DNA from: Patescibacteria group bacterium
GTDB taxonomy: Bacteria; Patescibacteriota; Minisyncoccia; Phycocordibacterales; JACOZG01
Direction of reading: 5' to 3'
DNA length: 64,000 bases
NCBI GenBank assembly: GCA_038065495.1
Contig: JBBTQW010000002.1
Location: 81,321 to 145,320 of the forward strand
Each line of letters begins with the position of its first letter. Positions within the stretch are counted from its first letter, which is position 1. Below, piece by piece: positions 4,305-58,273 of the stretch. The translations under genes and the position numbers were made by a program. A model generated the notes under the pieces. It was given only the letters and a program-made list of their open reading frames with translations. It did not search any database and was not told the DNA's origin.

Positions 4305-4634
4305 TTATTTAATACTCAAGATTTCTACTTCCGTGTAAGGCTGCCGGTGTCCCCTTTTCACACGATAACGAGTTTTGTTCTTGTACTTAAAGACGAGCAA
4401 TTTGTCGTGACGATCATCAGCCACGCGCTTGGCGGTCACCTTAACGCCGGCAAGAGCTGGCGTGCCGAGCTTGGTCTCTTTACCATCGCTAGTGAGCAAA
4501 ACCTCGTCGAAAATAACCTCGCTACCCTCTGACTTAACATCAGTTTTAGCCAGTTTTTCCACCTTCAGCTTATCGCCCGGAGCGACCAAATACTGCTTGC
4601 CGCCGGTCTTGATTACCGCAAATTTCATAGTCAT
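4305..4634 (-). CDS. rplU: 50S ribosomal protein L21
   Basis: MKFAVIKTGGKQYLVAPGDKLKVEKL is the typical L21 N-terminus. The true start may be the third codon (ATG at 4628). Confidence 0.85.
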   Translation of the reverse strand: MTMKFAVIKTGGKQYLVAPGDKLKVEKLAKTDVKSEGSEVIFDEVLLTSDGKETKLGTPALAGVKVTAKRVADDRHDKLLVFKYKNKTRYRVKRGHRQPYTEVEILSIK

Positions 4635-4691
4635 AGTGGGGATAGTTTAGCAGATTTGACTTTGGCCGTCAATATAATAAGCTAAAGGTTC

Positions 4692-5765
4692 ATGATCATC
4701 AAAGTTTACAATAAAAAGTTCGAAACTTGGGCTTATCTGGTGATAGATAGTTTAAAATTAGGTCCAGGCAAGGGCGGCATCCGCATGACGCCAAGCGTGA
4801 CCGAAGAAGAAGTCTCGCGTCTCGCCCGGGCGATGACGCTTAAGAACGCGCTGGCTAATATCCCCTTTGGTGGTGCTAAGTCTGGTATCACTTTTGATCC
4901 AAAAATTCACACCAGCAAAGAAAAAAAAGAAATTGTGGAATGGTTCGCGCAAGAACTAAAACCCCTACTCGTTCACAGTTACATCGCCGGACCGGACATC
5001 AACATGACGGAAAAGGAGATGCAATGGTTTGTGGAAGCAGTAAAGAATAACCGCGCGGCAACAGGTAAGCCGAAAAAATTAGGTGGTTTACCGCACGAGC
5101 TGGGCAGTACTGGCTACGGCGTGGCCCAAGCGGCTAAACTAGCACTAGAGTTTAAAAAAATCCCGATCAAGCAAGCTAGCATTGCAATCGAAGGTTATGG
5201 CAATGTGGGTGTTTTTGCTCATCAATTCCTGCAAGAGATGGGCGCGAAGGTGGTCGCCGTATCTGACTCACGTGGCGCAATTTATCTCGAAACTGGTTTG
5301 GATTATAAAAAGTTAGTGAAAATTAAAAAGCAAACTGGTTCTGTCGTTAATTACGCTAATCTTGATAAAAATAGCAGAAAGTTAAGCAATTCAGCCATCT
5401 TTACTCTACCGGTGAGCGTGTTGATTCCGGCGGCCTTGCCAGACGTGATTAATGCCAAAAATATTGACGAAGTAAAAGCAAAAATAATTGTGGAAGGCGC
5501 CAATATCCCAATGCGCGAAGAATTTGAGAAAATTCTGCATCAGCGCGGCGTGCTAATTATCCCCGATATTATTGCGAACGCCGGTGGCGTGATCTCCTCT
5601 TATGCCGAACACAAAAACTTTACGGCAGAAAAAATGTTCAAATTAGTAGCAGAAAAAATTTCTGCCAGCACTCGCGCGCTCTTGCGAGCACTAGCTAAAT
5701 CTAAGAAAACGCCACGCGAGATTGCTTGGCAATTAGCAGAGAAAAAGCTAGGCTCCAAACTCTAA
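4692..5765 (+). CDS. Glu/Leu/Phe/Val dehydrogenase-family protein (leucine/valine dehydrogenase-like)
   Basis: LGPGKGGIRMTPSVTEEEVSRLARAMTLKNA...GGAKSGI matches the LeuDH/PheDH catalytic lysine region; Rossmann motif GYGNVG. Confidence 0.7.
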   Translation: MIIKVYNKKFETWAYLVIDSLKLGPGKGGIRMTPSVTEEEVSRLARAMTLKNALANIPFGGAKSGITFDPKIHTSKEKKEIVEWFAQELKPLLVHSYIAGPDINMTEKEMQWFVEAVKNNRAATGKPKKLGGLPHELGSTGYGVAQAAKLALEFKKIPIKQASIAIEGYGNVGVFAHQFLQEMGAKVVAVSDSRGAIYLETGLDYKKLVKIKKQTGSVVNYANLDKNSRKLSNSAIFTLPVSVLIPAALPDVINAKNIDEVKAKIIVEGANIPMREEFEKILHQRGVLIIPDIIANAGGVISSYAEHKNFTAEKMFKLVAEKISASTRALLRALAKSKKTPREIAWQLAEKKLGSKL

Positions 5766-6073
5766 TCCCCGCCCGCCAACCGCTGTTGCATTGCCTCCAG
5801 CGCGCCGAGAGCTGTCTTGCCGGTGCGCTTTTCTTGTTCTAGAAGTTCTTGTTTTACCCGCTCACCACCCCGATTGTAACCACCCGTTCGGCCAGCAGAA
5901 CGCACTACCCTGTGGCACGGGATATGTGGATCGTGATTACGCGCCATAATGCGCCCCACCGCACGCCAAGCCCGTGGTGAGCCAGCTGCCTCCGCCACTT
6001 CGCGATAATTCATTACTTTGCCAGGCTTGATCGCCTTAACGACTTGATGCACTTTTCTGACAAATTCACTCAT
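5762..6073 (-). CDS. methylated-DNA-protein-cysteine methyltransferase DNA-binding domain protein (Ogt C-domain only, 103 aa)
   Basis: Active-site motif PCHRVV and winged-helix context (YREVAEAAGSPRAWRAVG). Confidence 0.75.
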   Translation of the reverse strand: MSEFVRKVHQVVKAIKPGKVMNYREVAEAAGSPRAWRAVGRIMARNHDPHIPCHRVVRSAGRTGGYNRGGERVKQELLEQEKRTGKTALGALEAMQQRLAGGD

Positions 6074-7115
6074 TTTCCAAATCTGGCTTGTCTAAAACTA
6101 ATGTCTCCATGCTGGAAGTCTCGCCCGTCACCCGTGCCACATCTTTATCAATCTTTTTCAGCTCTTTATACGCCGAATTATAGTGACTAACCGTTGTCCC
6201 CAAGCTTGTGCCAAGTTTGCCGAAATATTGCTCATAAGCCGCGATGTGCTTGCCCAAGTCTTCCACTCTGTCCCGAATCACCTTCGCTGATTCTTCTATT
6301 TGCAACGCCTTCAAGCCCTGCAGAACTGTCTGCAAGTAAGCCAAGAAAGATGTGGGCGAGACAATAATCACGTGTTTATCTTTGAATGCATACTCAATTA
6401 GATCTCTAGTATTTATTTTCACCGAACCAACTTGCGCGACTAATAAGTCATAATAAATCGCCTCGTGGGGAATAAACATGAAGGCGAAGTCCATCGTGCC
6501 CTCGCTCGGTTTGACATATTTACTCGTCTCATCAATTCTGTTCTTCAAATCAGACTTAAATAATTTCTCTAGGCGCTCCCGCTCCACCGGATCGCGTTCT
6601 TCGGCTAGTCTATTATAATTCTCGAGCGAAAATTTTGAGTCAATGGGAATAATTTTCTCTTTTACAAAAACCACCGCATCCACAATCGTGCCGTCTTTGA
6701 ACGGATATTGCATCTGGTAAGAACCAGTTGGTAAAACATTTTTCAGCAAAGTTTCGAGATAATATTCGCCAAGAATACCGCGCTGTTTGGGATTTTTCAA
6801 AATATCTTGCAAGCTCTGGAGTTGATCCGCGAAATTTTCCACGCGCTTCTGGCCTTCACCCACCTTCACCAGCTCGCTCGTGATATCGCGAATCATTTTA
6901 TTAGACTCGCTAGACTGACTCTGGAGCGAAGTGTGGAGAAACTTGCTCGACTCGGTGAGCTTGCTATCCAGCACGCGCGTGAGCTCATTGAGCTGATTCT
7001 GGAGCAAGATTAGCGCTTGATTATCCCCCGCCGGCTTCGGCTTATTCTGCGCCAAGAACCAAGCGATTCCGCCACCCACGAGCAAAGCAATAATTACATA
7101 CAAAATTGTCGCCAT
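6066..7115 (-). CDS. rmuC: DNA recombination protein RmuC
   Basis: N-terminal TM helix and coiled-coil region; C-terminal block GILGEYYLETLLKNVLP...QMQY...DAVVF...IPIDSKF aligns with the RmuC family. Confidence 0.6.
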   Translation of the reverse strand: MATILYVIIALLVGGGIAWFLAQNKPKPAGDNQALILLQNQLNELTRVLDSKLTESSKFLHTSLQSQSSESNKMIRDITSELVKVGEGQKRVENFADQLQSLQDILKNPKQRGILGEYYLETLLKNVLPTGSYQMQYPFKDGTIVDAVVFVKEKIIPIDSKFSLENYNRLAEERDPVERERLEKLFKSDLKNRIDETSKYVKPSEGTMDFAFMFIPHEAIYYDLLVAQVGSVKINTRDLIEYAFKDKHVIIVSPTSFLAYLQTVLQGLKALQIEESAKVIRDRVEDLGKHIAAYEQYFGKLGTSLGTTVSHYNSAYKELKKIDKDVARVTGETSSMETLVLDKPDLENE

Positions 7116-9208: not shown

Positions 9209-9418
9209 ATGAATTTTGAAGAATTTTTACAAAAAGTAGCCCCAAAAGTTGGTCCTAATGGGGCATTTAGTCTAGCTAGGGACGCGCGTATAACCGCTTT
9301 GGAAAAAATATTAAGTAGTAAACTAAATATCCAAAAAGAAGAAATTGATAAGTCTGTGGACGAAGAATTAGAGAAGTTAGCTACAAATATTCTTAAAATG
9401 CCGCCACTGCCTAATTAG
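9209..9418 (+). CDS. hypothetical protein (69 aa), AT-rich
   Basis: ORF in an AT-rich segment next to tRNA-Glu; no recognisable motif. Confidence 0.35.
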   Translation: MNFEEFLQKVAPKVGPNGAFSLARDARITALEKILSSKLNIQKEEIDKSVDEELEKLATNILKMPPLPN

Positions 9419-9422
9419 AATC

Positions 9423-9989
9423 ATGAGTAAAAAGATTGATTACTACGAGGATTTCCTGAGAGTTATAGGCGAGCGAGATAGGATTATAAGAGAAAATAAA
9501 AACAAACAACTAGTTTTTAGTTTAATAGCTTCGATTATCTCAATTCTAGCTCTTGCGTTTTTTTCGACTAGCTCTGGTGTATCTCTTTTCTTAAGCCCCG
9601 TATTTAAAAGCGAGGATCCCGCCACTCAGGAATTAGCAACAAAAGTAGACCGACTGCAAATCGATATTACCAACATTAAGAAATTATTTAACAACACCAA
9701 CGTTCCCTCTTTTAATTATCTAAATTCCAAACTCGTATCGATTGAACAAAAAAATGAGTACTTATACAACACCATCTTAGAAAACCCAGATAACGCCATT
9801 ACACCAATCATACTCAGAAAGGAGCAGAACAATTTAGACCAAAAAATTGAAGACTTAAGAAATCGTGTTGATACAACTAACAGTTGGCTTTTTGGAATAA
9901 TTGCGACTCTTGTCGTGGCAATAATTCTATTTCTTGGAAAACAAATTTTGACGTATTTTTCTAAGGAAAAAAACTCTATCAGAGAGTAG
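9423..9989 (+). CDS. hypothetical membrane-anchored coiled-coil protein (188 aa), AT-rich
   Basis: One TM helix (LVFSLIASIISILALAFF); sits 4 nt after the previous ORF, suggesting an operon. Confidence 0.4.
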   Translation: MSKKIDYYEDFLRVIGERDRIIRENKNKQLVFSLIASIISILALAFFSTSSGVSLFLSPVFKSEDPATQELATKVDRLQIDITNIKKLFNNTNVPSFNYLNSKLVSIEQKNEYLYNTILENPDNAITPIILRKEQNNLDQKIEDLRNRVDTTNSWLFGIIATLVVAIILFLGKQILTYFSKEKNSIRE

Positions 9990-10008
9990 TCCCAGAATAT
10001 TCAGTTTT

Positions 10009-10080
10009 GTGACCCTACAGGGAGTCGAACCCTGCTTCTAGCCTTGAGAAGGCTATGTCCTAGCCGATAGACGATAGGGC
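10009..10080 (-). tRNA. tRNA-Glu (anticodon CUC)
   Basis: Reverse complement folds as GGCCCTA/TAGGGTC acceptor, GTC/GAC D-stem, anticodon arm TAGCC-TTCTCAA-GGCTA, T-arm CAGGG-TTCGACT-CCCTG, discriminator A. CCA is not encoded. Confidence 0.8.
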
Positions 10081-10117
10081 CCCGATTTTGTTAAACGAAG
10101 TTTCTACAAAATCGAGG

Positions 10118-10154
10118 GTCCGCGATCCTCGACTTTAGTCGGGATCGGGACCAA
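10118..10154. repeat. left arm of a two-block inverted repeat flanking the GIY-YIG gene
   Basis: gcgatcctcga ... tcgggatcggga. Its reverse complement recurs at 10421-10458 (12/12 block plus a 9/11 block). Confidence 0.6.
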
Positions 10155-10166
10155 GTACCCATATTA

Positions 10167-10406
10167 TTACTTTTTTAGTAATCTTTCAATCGCCGCACGA
10201 CTTTTCCACTTTTTAATCTGGTATTCACGACCTTGAGCCAAAGATCTGTTTTGGTAGGTTTCCGAGTAAATAAGCTGACAAGGTAAATTATTTTTTGTTG
10301 ATTTTACTTTCCCATTCTGATGCTCAGTTAATCTTTGTTCTAAATTACCAGTGCTTCCAGTGTAATATGATCCATTACTCAGTTTTAGAATGTAAGTGGA
10401 ATACAT
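10167..10406 (-). CDS. GIY-YIG nuclease-domain protein (about 80 aa)
   Basis: MYSTYILKLSNGSYYTGSTGNLEQRLTEHQ is the GIY-YIG motif. Start chosen at the ATG with an AAGGAAAG RBS. Confidence 0.75.
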   Translation of the reverse strand: MYSTYILKLSNGSYYTGSTGNLEQRLTEHQNGKVKSTKNNLPCQLIYSETYQNRSLAQGREYQIKKWKSRAAIERLLKK

Positions 10407-10418
10407 TTTTATCTTTCC

Positions 10419-10460
10419 TTTCCCGATCCCGATTCTTCGAATCGTGGATCGAGGATCCAC
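10419..10460. repeat. right arm of the inverted repeat flanking GIY-YIG; also contains the local palindrome cgtggatcGAGgatccacg
   Basis: tcccgatcccga (reverse complement of tcgggatcggga) and ggatcgaggatcc. An adjacent second hairpin gacgttaa...ttaacgtc overlaps the murF stop codon. Confidence 0.6.
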
Positions 10461-10475
10461 GACGTTAATGTTTAA

Positions 10476-11765
10476 TTAACGTCGGGACCAGTTTTCGTCT
10501 TGCCTGACAAGTAATTTACTTTTCTCTTCTGGTTGCGCCATAATCTCCTCCACCACGCGCTCCATGCGCAGTGATTGCGAACCTTTTACGAGAATCACAT
10601 CAGCTGGCGCAATAAAGTTCTGCAGAAACTCGCCAGCCTGGCGCGAATCATCGAAGTGATAAACATTTTTCTTGCCCATTTTTTTCTTCATCGCTTCTTC
10701 CACGGCAAATTTCATCCGGAGTCCGACAGTCACCAACACGTCCGAGACGCGCGAAGCCAGAATCCCCACTTTCCGGTGCTCATCTATCGTATATTTGCCA
10801 AGTTCGAGCATATCACCCAACACTGCGATCTTCCGGCCAGTAATTTGCAAGCTGTTGAGAGTCTGGAGCGCCGCTTCTATTGCCGCCGGCGAAGCATTGT
10901 ACGTATCGTCAATAATTAGCGTTTCTTTAATTCCAGCTAGCAAGCGCATCCGGCCAGGCGGTGTGGTGAGGGTTTTGAGCGCTTCGCTCGCGCTCGCTAG
11001 ACTCATCCCCTGCGCCACGGCCGCGGCGGCAGCCGCAAGCAGCGCGTAGAGCTGGTGCTCTCCGAGCACGCCGTGGAGCTCAAACTTAACGCTCTCGCCG
11101 GCATAAGTAATCTGCACACTCAAGCCAACTGGCTGATTTTCATAAATAATTTGCACATCAGACGCCAGCAAATCAGAACCCGTTTGGAAGCCGTAGCTTA
11201 ACTTTCTCGCCTTCAAGCCATCAGCTAAATCGCGAATTTTTTCGTCGTCATGATTATAAATGACCAAACCCGATTCACTTACCGCTTGCGCGAGCAACCA
11301 CTTTTCTCGCGTCACCTCTTCGGCGGATTTAAAAAACTCCACATGCACTGGCACTTCCGGCAAACGGGTAATCACAGCCACGTCCAGCTTGAGCCAGCTC
11401 ACCAAGCGCGCCACATCGCCCGGGTGCTGAATGCCCACTTCTAACACCAATAATTCCGGATAATTAGTTCTAAACAGAATTAAACCCAAACCTTCGATAA
11501 TATTCTTCAACCACAAAACTAGATTCCACCAAGCGTTATCGCAATTTAAGATAGTGAGCGGCAAACCAATCTCGTGATTAAAGCTCTTCTGACTCGCTCT
11601 CAATCTAAATTTACCAGAGAGGACAGTCGCAATCGCATCTTTTGTACCCGTCTTGCCCACACTGCCAGTGATGGCAATGATTTTGGGCTGGTACTTTTTT
11701 AAGACCAATCTCGCCTCCCAGCGGAGAATCGTCGTGATGAGAAATCTAGCGGTCTGGCGGAACAT
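10476..11765 (-). CDS. murF: UDP-N-acetylmuramoyl-tripeptide--D-alanyl-D-alanine ligase
   Basis: KIIAITGSVGKTGTKD P-loop and Mur ligase middle and C domains; sits in the dcw cluster. Confidence 0.85.
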   Translation of the reverse strand: MFRQTARFLITTILRWEARLVLKKYQPKIIAITGSVGKTGTKDAIATVLSGKFRLRASQKSFNHEIGLPLTILNCDNAWWNLVLWLKNIIEGLGLILFRTNYPELLVLEVGIQHPGDVARLVSWLKLDVAVITRLPEVPVHVEFFKSAEEVTREKWLLAQAVSESGLVIYNHDDEKIRDLADGLKARKLSYGFQTGSDLLASDVQIIYENQPVGLSVQITYAGESVKFELHGVLGEHQLYALLAAAAAAVAQGMSLASASEALKTLTTPPGRMRLLAGIKETLIIDDTYNASPAAIEAALQTLNSLQITGRKIAVLGDMLELGKYTIDEHRKVGILASRVSDVLVTVGLRMKFAVEEAMKKKMGKKNVYHFDDSRQAGEFLQNFIAPADVILVKGSQSLRMERVVEEIMAQPEEKSKLLVRQDENWSRR

Positions 11766-41948: not shown

Positions 41949-42023
41949 TGGCTCCCTGGGTAGGATTCGAACCTACGACCAATCGCTTAACAGGCGACTG
42001 CGCTACCGCTGCGCCACCAGGGA
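41949..42023 (-). tRNA. tRNA-Asn (anticodon GUU), CCA encoded
   Basis: Reverse complement folds as TCCCTGG/CCAGGGA acceptor, GCGC D-stem, GTCGC-CTGTTAA-GCGAT anticodon arm, GTAGG-TTCGAAT-CCTAC T-arm, G discriminator, CCA. Confidence 0.85.
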
Positions 42024-58190: not shown

Positions 58191-58261
58191 GGGCCTATAG
58201 TATAGCGGTAGAACGGTTCCATGGCATGGAACAGGTCCGGGTTCGACTCCCGGTAGGTCCA
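58191..58261 (+). tRNA. tRNA-Ala (anticodon GGC)
   Basis: GGGCCTA/TAGGTCC acceptor with the G3:U70 Ala identity pair, anticodon arm GTTCC-ATGGCAT-GGAAC, T-arm CCGGG-TTCGACT-CCCGG, discriminator A. CCA is not encoded. Confidence 0.8.
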
Positions 58262-58273
58262 CAGAGTTTCCCC

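Follow-up and report, generated by a model that had tools for sequence, protein, structure and literature searches.

Bacterial proteins of the Slx1-like/UPF0213 branch of the GIY-YIG nucleases have been treated as products of vertically inherited housekeeping genes of unknown function (PMC1564403). Slx1 itself cuts branched DNA, as stated in the titles of its PDB entries. GIY-YIG genes are also found in insertions within the rRNA genes of the candidate phyla radiation (CPR), and these insertions match neither group I nor group II introns (PMC11270868). A study of group I introns in the tRNA genes of Patescibacteria reports endonucleases of the HNH, LAGLIDADG, and PD-(D/E)XK types, and the term GIY-YIG is absent from its text (PMC13011429). 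Here, we consider a GIY-YIG gene located between murF and tRNA-Glu(CUC) in a 64,000-nucleotide stretch of DNA from a Patescibacteria group bacterium (contig JBBTQW010000002.1), referred to below as the window. We think it likely that positions 10080–10490 of the window are an old, eroded copy of a family of DNA-level mobile (selfish) elements of Patescibacteria. As far as we could check, the family is undescribed; in the literature covered, to which subscription journals do not belong, no paper combines GIY-YIG, Patescibacteria/CPR, and tRNA genes in this arrangement.

A discrete insert tied to one nuclease family

The locus is organized as follows. An open reading frame (ORF) for a GIY-YIG nuclease of 79 residues, with a Pfam PF01541 domain of the minimal Slx1-like/UPF0213 type, occupies 10167–10406 of the minus strand. 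On its 3′ side is an intact tRNA-Glu(CUC), at 10009–10081 on the minus strand (ARAGORN; Rfam RF00005, 52.7 bits), whose sequence shows no differences from that of the orthologous locus L041. The original prediction, made from the window's sequence, was of a small GIY-YIG gene next to this tRNA and flanked by inverted repeats, and this is what is present. Each flank contains one copy of a palindromic, double-hairpin block. Block U, upstream of the gene, extends from 10421 to 10487 and includes the right arm of the predicted inverted repeat together with both palindromes noted beside it. Block D, downstream, extends from 10080 to 10150 and includes the left arm; it is defined by its sequence, by a match to a regular expression, and by its DNA fold. 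Both blocks are given on the minus strand.

The junction of murF with the tRNA was compared among relatives. In a scan of one genome per species, 38 MurF relatives were found, all at most 52% identical to the window protein. The adjacency of murF and tRNA-Glu(CUC) is judged ancestral because the tRNA comes after murF in many of the 38. At L014, L020, L022, and L036, murF and the tRNA are separated by only 7–21 nt, and there are no hairpins. These are the empty sites for which the original prediction had proposed to search. In other MurF relatives the gap is filled by unrelated genes. In contrast to the empty sites, homologues of the nuclease are found at the same junction, with the same two blocks, in L041 (86% identity), L043 (76%), and L048 (67%). 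Thus, the conserved target is occupied in some relatives and unoccupied in others, a presence/absence polymorphism of the homing type.

The end of murF differs among relatives. In those lacking the cassette, murF ends …EWLNR-stop or similarly. L043 retains this ancestral end, W-L-N-R-stop, which is followed by TCTAACGGTTAG, a remnant of the tRNA-Glu D-loop, and then by the block. The window has no such stretch. Instead, its murF ends TGG TCC CGA CGT TAA (W-S-R-R-stop; 10476–10490, minus strand), so that the last three codons and the stop, that is, everything except the Trp codon, are block sequence. In L041 and L048 the C-terminus of MurF likewise comes from the block. An essential cell-wall enzyme thereby has its C-terminus provided by the element.

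The window MurF is 72% identical to that of L041, 48–49% to those of the cassette-bearing L043, L048, and L058, and 50–52% to those of the cassette-less L003–L005, the nearest cassette-less MurF being 52% identical. Nuclease identity across the cassette-bearing genomes is 65–76%. In a neighbor-joining tree of MurF, the cassette-bearing genomes are interspersed among cassette-less ones. These identities and the tree are better explained by the element having arrived at this target, or having been lost from it, more than once than by one ancient insertion. Since the tree has no support values, this point is suggestive only.

Relatives of the nuclease also occur far from murF. Metagenomes were scanned with the alignment of the proteins; of the first 600 pattern matches, 336 were confirmed as relatives, and 80 loci were kept. 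Relatives of 59–69% identity have the block at unrelated tRNA-Glu(UUC) loci, where it is cleanly inserted in a copy of the first 11–22 nt of the tRNA. For example, the gene for P0006, a protein 68% identical to that of the window, has tRNA-Ser on one side and a tRNA-Glu(UUC)-msrB pair on the other, and murF is not in its vicinity. The segment 5′ of its block, AACCTGTGGCCCTATCGT, is a copy of the tRNA's 5′ flank and first 11 nt, and the intact tRNA begins 15 nt beyond the stop codon of the gene. The insertion junction of L055 reads GGCCCTATCGT, block, CTAACG…, and L058, L061, and L066 have the same layout, the block being a clean insert in the 5′ copy of the tRNA. The insertion points in the tRNA-Glu copies are 11/12 (…ATCGT, block, CTAACG…) or 22/23 (…GGTTAG, block, GACATC…, as in L061). 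In the copies at tRNA-Glu(UUC), the ORF begins near the position of the anticodon loop.

The association with tRNA genes extends through the family. Among the 76 distinct genes with enough downstream sequence, 38 have a tRNA on the same strand starting between −60 and +260 nt from the stop codon, versus 34 of 622 control ORFs. The tRNAs are of 16 anticodon types (Glu, Ala, Thr, Ser, Pro, Lys, Asp, Tyr, Asn, Phe, and Arg). The sequence 5′ of the ORF is usually a copy of the 5′ part of the same tRNA (1–11, 1–22, 1–35, or the whole gene), and the intact tRNA is often followed by a copy of its 3′ part, 36–76. Significant direct repeats flank 30 of 70 loci. The insertion sites within tRNA genes are the loop-coding positions 11/12, 22–25, 35/36, and the T-loop. 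The original prediction placed the cassette at the flank of the tRNA; the target is rather the tRNA gene itself.

A nested architecture, with outer 5′ and 3′ halves of a tRNA, is found at L067, L069, L070, L076, L083, and L090. The outer tRNA runs to position 35 (or 24) and is interrupted by TCCCGA-x-(ORF)-x′-TCGAGGATCCTCGA-y-(intact tRNA)-y′-TCGGGA, after which the rest of the outer tRNA follows. Both x/x′ and y/y′ are perfect inverted repeats. In canonical copies, it is precisely the ORF that is enclosed by perfect inverted repeats of 11–17 nt, to which the block motifs are joined. Three more blocks, without an ORF, are present in the outer tRNA-Ala of L069, namely in the D-stem, after the D-arm, and in the T-loop; ORF-less blocks also stand alone within tRNA pseudogenes at L069, L083, and L061. 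At L060, several fragments of tRNA-Glu and three blocks surround one intact tRNA. The outer tRNA halves of L069 and L070 show substitutions and replaced arms. Between the inner and outer tRNA-Thr sequences of L076, the acceptor and anticodon stems show compensatory differences; therefore, both evolved as working tRNAs in different lineages and were later brought together.

Two family nuclease genes are arranged in tandem at L083, L095, L102, L105, L120, L125, and L136, some with two sets of tRNA fragments, and two proteins, P0015 (214 residues) and P0017 (205 residues), have two GIY-YIG matches each. The tandem and double nucleases look like the result of repeated invasion of the spare copy. 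A further oddity is seen at L100 (826–902) and L135 (14–90 and 366–444), where ARAGORN calls tRNA-Pro genes that have a perfect G+C hairpin, TCCCGCCGGTGGCGGGA or CCCCGCCACAGGCGGGG, in place of the D-arm. These calls flank family nuclease genes on either side.

At many of the loci that lack a tRNA, a conserved protein gene has the same element at one of its ends. At L077, the last 21 codons of the gene for EF-G are found on both sides of the element, with 76% identity and mostly synonymous differences. The C-terminal end is likewise duplicated at the 3′ ends of the genes for transketolase (L093 and L049) and UvrA (L111). At L091, it is the 5′ end of topA, encoding topoisomerase I, that is affected: a 12-codon 5′ stub is followed by the element and then by the full gene. 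The duplicated gene ends, notably those of EF-G and TopA, have diverged mainly at synonymous sites, which means that one of the two copies was brought along with the element from a different genome. The host ORF simply ends inside the element at these protein-gene sites. Co-transfer of flanking target sequence is thus seen in L076, L077, and L091; the window copy itself shows no sign of it.

No transposase or integrase gene recurs beside the loci, and the GIY-YIG gene is the sole ORF of the element. The element is a discrete insert, strictly tied to one nuclease family.

The double-hairpin block and the element ends

The repeats around the window gene are as follows. The inverted repeat TCGGGATCGGGA (10139–10150 and 10421–10432) matches at 12 of 12 positions and GATCCTCGA (10124–10132 and 10449–10457) at 9 of 9; both sit inside one 21-nt arm that is 81% complementary. 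The palindrome TCGTGGATC-GAG-GATCCACGA, at 10442–10462, has a 9-bp stem, and CGACGTTAAT-GTTTA-ATTAACGTCG, at 10460–10484, has a 10-bp stem that spans the murF stop codon (10476–10478). All the repeats and palindromes of the original prediction are therefore accounted for, including the hairpin over the murF stop, and they are far beyond chance. A 12-mer with at most one mismatch is expected 0.15 times in 64 kb, and none of 100 shuffled sequences reached two matches; the pattern for a hairpin with a 9-bp stem, with an expectation of 0, matches the window only at these two flank sites.

The two flanks also match in direct-repeat register, ATCGAGGRTCCRCGA and TCGGGACCA each recurring at a spacing of 337; the reason is that a single palindromic module is present, as a copy, in either flank. 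The general form of the module is TCCCGA-hairpin 1-TCG(N)GGATCC(N)CGA-hairpin 2-TCGGGA, with a length of about 60–75 nt, and there is one copy per flank. In the sense orientation, with the hairpins in parentheses, block U is TCCCGA-(CGTTAAT TAAAC ATTAACG)-TCGTGGA·TCCTCGA-(TCCACGA TTCGAAGAA TCGGGA)-TCGGGA, and block D is TCCCGA-(TCCCGAC TAAA GTCGAGGA)-TCGCGGA·CCCTCGA-(TTTTGTAGAAACTTCGTTTAACAAAA)-TCGGGG. The final two bases of block D are bases 1 and 2 of the tRNA. Hairpin 2 of block U and hairpin 1 of block D both consist of the doubled motif TCC(N)CGA / TCG(N)GGA, and this is the cause of the apparent terminal inverted repeat. The flanks are thus not transposon ends around a cargo of about 340 bp, as first supposed; each holds the same nested palindromic block.

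As DNA, block D folds with −23 kcal/mol on either strand (z-scores of −5.3 and −5.9), and block U with −23.7 and −23.8 kcal/mol on the two strands (z-scores of −6.5 and −7.4). It had been suggested, as an alternative to mobility, that the repeats form a long-range RNA structure ending the dcw operon. Folding of the 419-nt sense RNA gave local hairpins only, both in the minimum free energy structure and in the centroid. There is no sense-strand terminator or U-tract at the window locus, the sole terminator-like match being on the plus (antisense) strand, and the stems have almost no G-U pairs. Long-range pairing of the flanks was also rejected from L041, in which a hairpin of block D has a compensatory swap of U-A to C-G. 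With this swap the long-range match falls from 12/12 to 11/12, and the local stem is kept.

The structure of the block is supported by an alignment of 16 blocks. The anchor motifs are invariant, and the hairpins, while wholly different in sequence, are still paired: 89% of the cells are paired, 14 pairs are changed on both sides, and there are 67 compensatory cells versus 22 in shuffles. When the alignment is read in shifted registers, pairing goes down to 27–56%. Columns 47 and 94 covary, with UA in 12 blocks and CG in 4, which favors two hairpins side by side; a cloverleaf (four-way) fold of the block was rejected on this ground. The N positions of the core palindrome show no covariation. 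The stems contain 289 Watson–Crick pairs overall, with 1 G-T and 3 A-C pairs. The 32 short hairpins account for 195 of the Watson–Crick pairs, together with 1 G-T and 3 A-C pairs, and the nine stems that enclose an ORF for 94, with no G-T pair. Given the near absence of G-T pairs and the equal stability on both strands, DNA-level palindromes are favored over RNA structure.

The core palindrome, TCG(N)GGATCC(N)CGA, has 58 matches in the family loci, which amount to 338 kb. Almost all of these matches are no more than 200 nt away from the ORF, typically 40–70 nt 5′ of the ATG or right after the stop codon. It has no match in 299 kb of cassette-less relatives. In the 64-kb window it is confined to one locus, and no further copies of the repeats or the gene were found elsewhere in the window. 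The original prediction had proposed a search for other repeat copies; these are thus lacking in the window itself but occur, with the gene, at other sites and other tRNAs in relatives, together with duplicated pieces of the target.

The ends of the element were established from 26 junction pairs. The element begins with TCCCGA, preceded by G or T, and ends with TCGGGA, followed by C or G. No target-site duplication is found at the junctions; the host sequence runs on across the insert without repeated bases. From end to end, the element is 305–335 nt long without cargo and 376–427 nt long with a tRNA.

Several other structures were considered for these sequences. A hidden tRNA-like gene on the plus strand, hinted at by the ends of TCGGGACCA, was found neither by ARAGORN nor by Rfam, and the motif is the block end plus CC. 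Introns of the archaeal bulge-helix-bulge type were rejected: the ends pair flush with the junction, with no bulges. An Rfam search of the window at the gathering threshold, and of 9900–10700 at E ≤ 10, gave nothing but tRNA, and 15 family and archetype loci gave no family but tRNA and no ribozyme; a group I intron in the tRNA is thereby ruled out.

The nuclease and its surroundings

The 79-residue protein matches Pfam PF01541 over residues 1–70 with 56.2 bits, against a cut-off of 22.6 (E = 4.2e-15). Its sequence matches in the PDB are the UPF0213 proteins 1zg2 (E = 3.5e-12) and 1ywl (E = 3.5e-10). An AlphaFold model has a predicted local distance difference test score (pLDDT) of 91, and Foldseek places 1zg2, 1ywl, and Slx1 (7cq3; root-mean-square deviation of 2.0 Å over 71 columns), in this order, all ahead of the catalytic domain of I-TevI. 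The protein is a single domain, with no accessory domain and no Asn after E61. It is a member of the Slx1-like/UPF0213 branch of the GIY-YIG superfamily, a branch that contains 3,766 clusters at 50% identity (E ≤ 1e-10), almost all of 80–130 residues.

Residues Y5, Y15, R25, H29, and E61 show no variation among 14 homologues. From the roles of their counterparts in I-TevI and UvrC, we take these to be the catalytic Tyr of the "GIY", the Tyr of the "YIG", Arg, His, and Glu, respectively. The ratio of nonsynonymous to synonymous substitution rates (dN/dS) relative to L041 is 0.08, a value that points to purifying selection; more distant pairs are saturated at synonymous sites. From the invariant catalytic residues, the dN/dS value, and the match of the modeled fold to Slx1, the nuclease looks active. 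The sole NCBIfam match, to a group-I-intron endonuclease family, is below threshold (17.9 bits, cut-off 56). A phage origin was rejected, there being no PHROGs matches and one relative in IMG/VR. Bacterial Slx1-like GIY-YIG genes have been found fused or adjacent to COG4123 and TrmH-type methyltransferases (PMC1564403), which is a second, independent hint that ties this nuclease branch to tRNA biology.

The ORF called mechanically for the nuclease extends from 10167 to 10460 and starts with GTG. The coding sequence likely starts with the ATG at 10406, with the stop codon at 10167–10169. A Shine–Dalgarno sequence, AAGGA, is read 9 nt 5′ of this ATG, at 10416–10420 on the minus strand. A sigma-70-like promoter match, TTGAAA-17-TAATAT, is found at 10161–10189 on the minus strand by a consensus scan alone, with no evidence of function. 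It lies within the 3′ end of the nuclease ORF and is directed toward the tRNA; in the empty-site relatives the tRNA begins 7–21 nt past murF, and a promoter of its own would not fit.

The order of genes on the minus strand is mraZ, rsmH, a small ORF, a gene for a penicillin-binding protein (PBP), murF, the GIY-YIG ORF, and tRNA-Glu(CUC). murF, at 10476–11765 (minus strand; Pfam Mur_ligase_M and Mur_ligase_C), is the last gene of the local dcw cluster (mraZ-rsmH-…-PBP-murF). On the plus strand, two ORFs, at 9209–9418 (69 residues) and 9423–9989 (188 residues), converge on the tRNA; neither has a Pfam match, and the 188-residue product has one hydrophobic segment close to each end. L043 has different unannotated ORFs in place of this pair. 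The other two tRNA genes of the window, tRNA-Asn-GUU at 41949–42023 and tRNA-Ala-GGC at 58191–58262, have neither a block motif nor a family gene nearby, and are unoccupied potential targets. At L048, a gene for a large serine recombinase of 588 residues (4335–6101; Resolvase, Recombinase, and Zn_ribbon_recom domains) is situated on the other strand, where it overlaps or directly adjoins the tRNA-Glu called at 4324–4396, a tRNA that may also be the attachment site of a different, integrase-type element.

Readings of the locus and comparison with known systems

We suggest that the family consists of a gene for an Slx1-like GIY-YIG nuclease of about 80 residues and a conserved double-hairpin DNA module. 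In well-preserved relatives, the two form a discrete insert of 305–430 bp, in which the ORF occupies the loop of hairpin 1 and, when the target is a tRNA gene, a complete spare tRNA occupies the loop of hairpin 2. The interrupted host copy is left as halves or as a stub, and the spare copy would retain function. For the window, the proposed target is the tRNA-Glu(CUC) that ancestrally abutted murF. An old insertion would have been followed by deletion of the outer tRNA remnant, fusing murF to the upstream block, so that murF now ends within it. A second, solo block without an ORF would have inserted directly 5′ of the working tRNA. The small mobile or homing cassette of the original prediction therefore gains support from the empty sites and from the copies at other sites, although the window copy is old and eroded rather than a recent arrival.

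As to how the element moves, we offer only a tentative proposal, in which the nuclease acts on the element's own hairpin ends and/or on the target, and the element spreads by copying that depends on recombination, with the conserved target sequence as homology. The Slx1-like nuclease would recognize the hairpin or cruciform form of the conserved motifs, or the target, or both. A break in an unoccupied target could then be mended with an occupied target as template, homology being provided by the conserved sequence of the tRNA or gene to either side of the element. Where homology is one-sided, the other end would be joined at the element end, leaving the native remnant. It is tempting to go further and to see here a previously unrecognized class of autonomous DNA element, possibly the smallest known, whose sole enzyme is an Slx1-like GIY-YIG protein of about 80 residues. 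Such an element would cut its own double-hairpin ends and/or the cloverleaf-prone DNA of tRNA genes, invade essential conserved genes, and carry a spare copy of what it breaks. We regard this broader claim as possible, and somewhat short of an even chance.

A number of observations weigh against the locus being a mobile element. The window copy lacks any remnant of an outer tRNA, the 64 kb contain no second copy, and its mobility is deduced from its relatives. The copies at the murF site are saturated, or nearly so, at synonymous sites, and no recent movement is seen; their long persistence and the purifying selection would also be consistent with a gene that has taken on a function for the host. 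Since a nuclease of 79 residues has no separate DNA-binding domain to read a long target, it is hard to see how it could have the long-site specificity of classic homing enzymes. At half of the family loci ARAGORN calls no tRNA downstream, several of these loci being in protein genes. The MurF tree is, as described, a neighbor-joining tree lacking support values. All the relatives are from metagenome assemblies, and in these loci no excision product, site polymorphic within a single population, or enzyme activity was seen.

Foremost among the other explanations is that the gene is a resident, housekeeping UPF0213 gene and that the hairpins on either side of it have ordinary roles at transcript ends, in processing, or in regulation, serving the dcw operon, the mRNA of the nuclease, and the precursor of the tRNA. 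This would explain why the gene, the hairpins, and their position are common to at least four species-level lineages, why the protein appears to be under strong purifying selection, and why the hairpins show compensatory change; UPF0213 genes are, moreover, common in other bacteria, as single-copy genes. It is difficult to reconcile with the presence of the same block and gene at many unrelated loci, in tRNA pseudogenes and at protein-gene ends, or with the absence of the block from the 299 kb of cassette-less relatives. The lack of a sense-strand terminator or U-tract, the near lack of G-U pairs in the stems, and the failure of MurF to group the cassette-bearing genomes speak the same way, and we consider a resident gene improbable.

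Excision at the RNA level must also be weighed. Here the blocks, or the version with the ORF, would be transcribed within the tRNA and removed from the RNA, in the manner of the group I introns at 35/36 of Patescibacteria tRNAs or of rRNA intervening sequences, the GIY-YIG protein being a homing or maturation factor. The insertion points lie in tRNA loops and include 35/36, where group I introns are reported in this phylum (PMC13011429), pairing between the two ends brings the flanks together, and GIY-YIG ORFs are reported in CPR rRNA insertions that are not introns (PMC11270868). Against this, the window and the 15 archetype loci hold no ribozyme and no Rfam family other than tRNA, and the block, at 53–88 nt, is far too small for a group I core. 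The interrupted tRNA is accompanied by an intact spare, the outer halves at L069 and L070 have substitutions and replaced arms, the stems are without G-U pairs, and the same element is found in protein-coding genes, where the host ORF simply ends in it. An RNA-level intervening sequence is thus very unlikely. Least credible of all is the coincidence of two unrelated things, namely blocks of the REP/MITE (miniature inverted-repeat transposable element) kind moved by another enzyme and an independent, free-standing GIY-YIG homing endonuclease with a preference for tRNA genes, for which the solo ORF-less blocks within tRNA pseudogenes (L069, L083, and L061) and the position of the window blocks outside the ORF, rather than around it, can be cited, but against which stand the occurrence of the core palindrome only beside family ORFs in the 700 kb examined, the perfect inverted repeats of 11–17 nt that, with the block motifs, enclose exactly the ORF in canonical copies, and the lack of a recurring transposase or integrase gene next to the loci.

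If the mobile-element reading is correct, the UPF0213 family, or at least part of it, would have its first biological role. Slx1-like nucleases of the stand-alone kind are widespread, and structures have been solved since 2005, yet to our knowledge they have no established function. Here, a large UPF0213-type branch shows the hallmarks of a selfish element with defined, structured ends. These elements are far smaller than known insertion sequences, and they would persist in the tiny, gene-dense genomes of Patescibacteria by nesting a working tRNA or a replacement gene end in the gene that they break. In the annotation of these genomes, the element would account for fragments of tRNAs, for odd "tRNAs" whose arms are hairpins, and for essential proteins whose C-termini are altered. 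A substrate on which the enzyme can be tested directly is given by the conserved motifs TCCCGA, TCGAGGATCCTCGA, and TCGGGA.

Among described systems, the nuclease is closest to the UPF0213 proteins BH0048 (PDB 1zg2), EF2693 (PDB 1ywl), and E. coli YhbQ, which it resembles in sequence family and fold and in being a minimal domain of about 80–100 residues with no accessory domain. It also lacks the C-terminal Asn, as described for the Slx1-like branch (PMC1564403). The difference is one of context, since in that study we found nothing on mobility, on a double-hairpin module, or on a nested position within tRNA genes. The phage T4 gene segB, in a tRNA gene cluster, is similar to the element in being a GIY-YIG gene among or beside tRNA genes, and free-standing GIY-YIG homing endonuclease genes such as this one spread with flanking target sequence and are patchy among relatives (PMC2330249). 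In contrast to the window nuclease, enzymes of the Seg and I-TevI type belong to the HEase/UvrC branch and have DNA-binding domains; their genes have no defined ends and no hairpin module, and they do not lie inside the target with a spare copy.

Two systems are known from the same phylum. The CPR rRNA-gene insertions (Tsurumaki et al. 2024, PMC11270868) share with the element the location of GIY-YIG ORFs inside insertions in structural-RNA genes, although the target is rRNA and not tRNA, and they may be related to it. The group I introns of Patescibacteria tRNA genes (Nakagawa et al. 2026, PMC13011429) share the kind of target and, for several family members, the favored site 35/36. Unlike these introns, the element has no ribozyme, and it has a nested intact tRNA and palindromes of the DNA type.

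With respect to transposons, the element has conserved terminal inverted repeats (TCCCGA…TCGGGA) but neither a target-site duplication nor a known transposase of the DDE, HUH, Tyr, or Ser type. IS200/IS605 and REP-RAYT elements have in common with it conserved hairpin ends, precise insertion without target duplication, and miniature derivatives without an ORF. It differs from IS200/IS605 in having no HUH, tyrosine, or serine recombinase, a GIY-YIG nuclease being its sole enzyme, and it is two to three times smaller than IS200. Integrative elements that target tRNA genes are similar in that they land in these genes and that a duplicated segment keeps the tRNA working; what the present element duplicates is either the 5′ half of the tRNA or all of it, rather than its 3′ end. 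There is also a fungal mitochondrial case to be considered. In the mitochondrial DNA of Allomyces, an endonuclease ORF is inserted at the end of the conserved gene atp6 together with a foreign copy of that end, and the native end is left as a remnant. Fungal mitochondrial "double-hairpin elements", which are short repeats of two hairpins, are found in the same genomes as such endonuclease ORFs; they are not known to form the ends of the element with the endonuclease ORF. The fungal mitochondrial case differs from the element of Patescibacteria in being organellar and in having larger ORFs.

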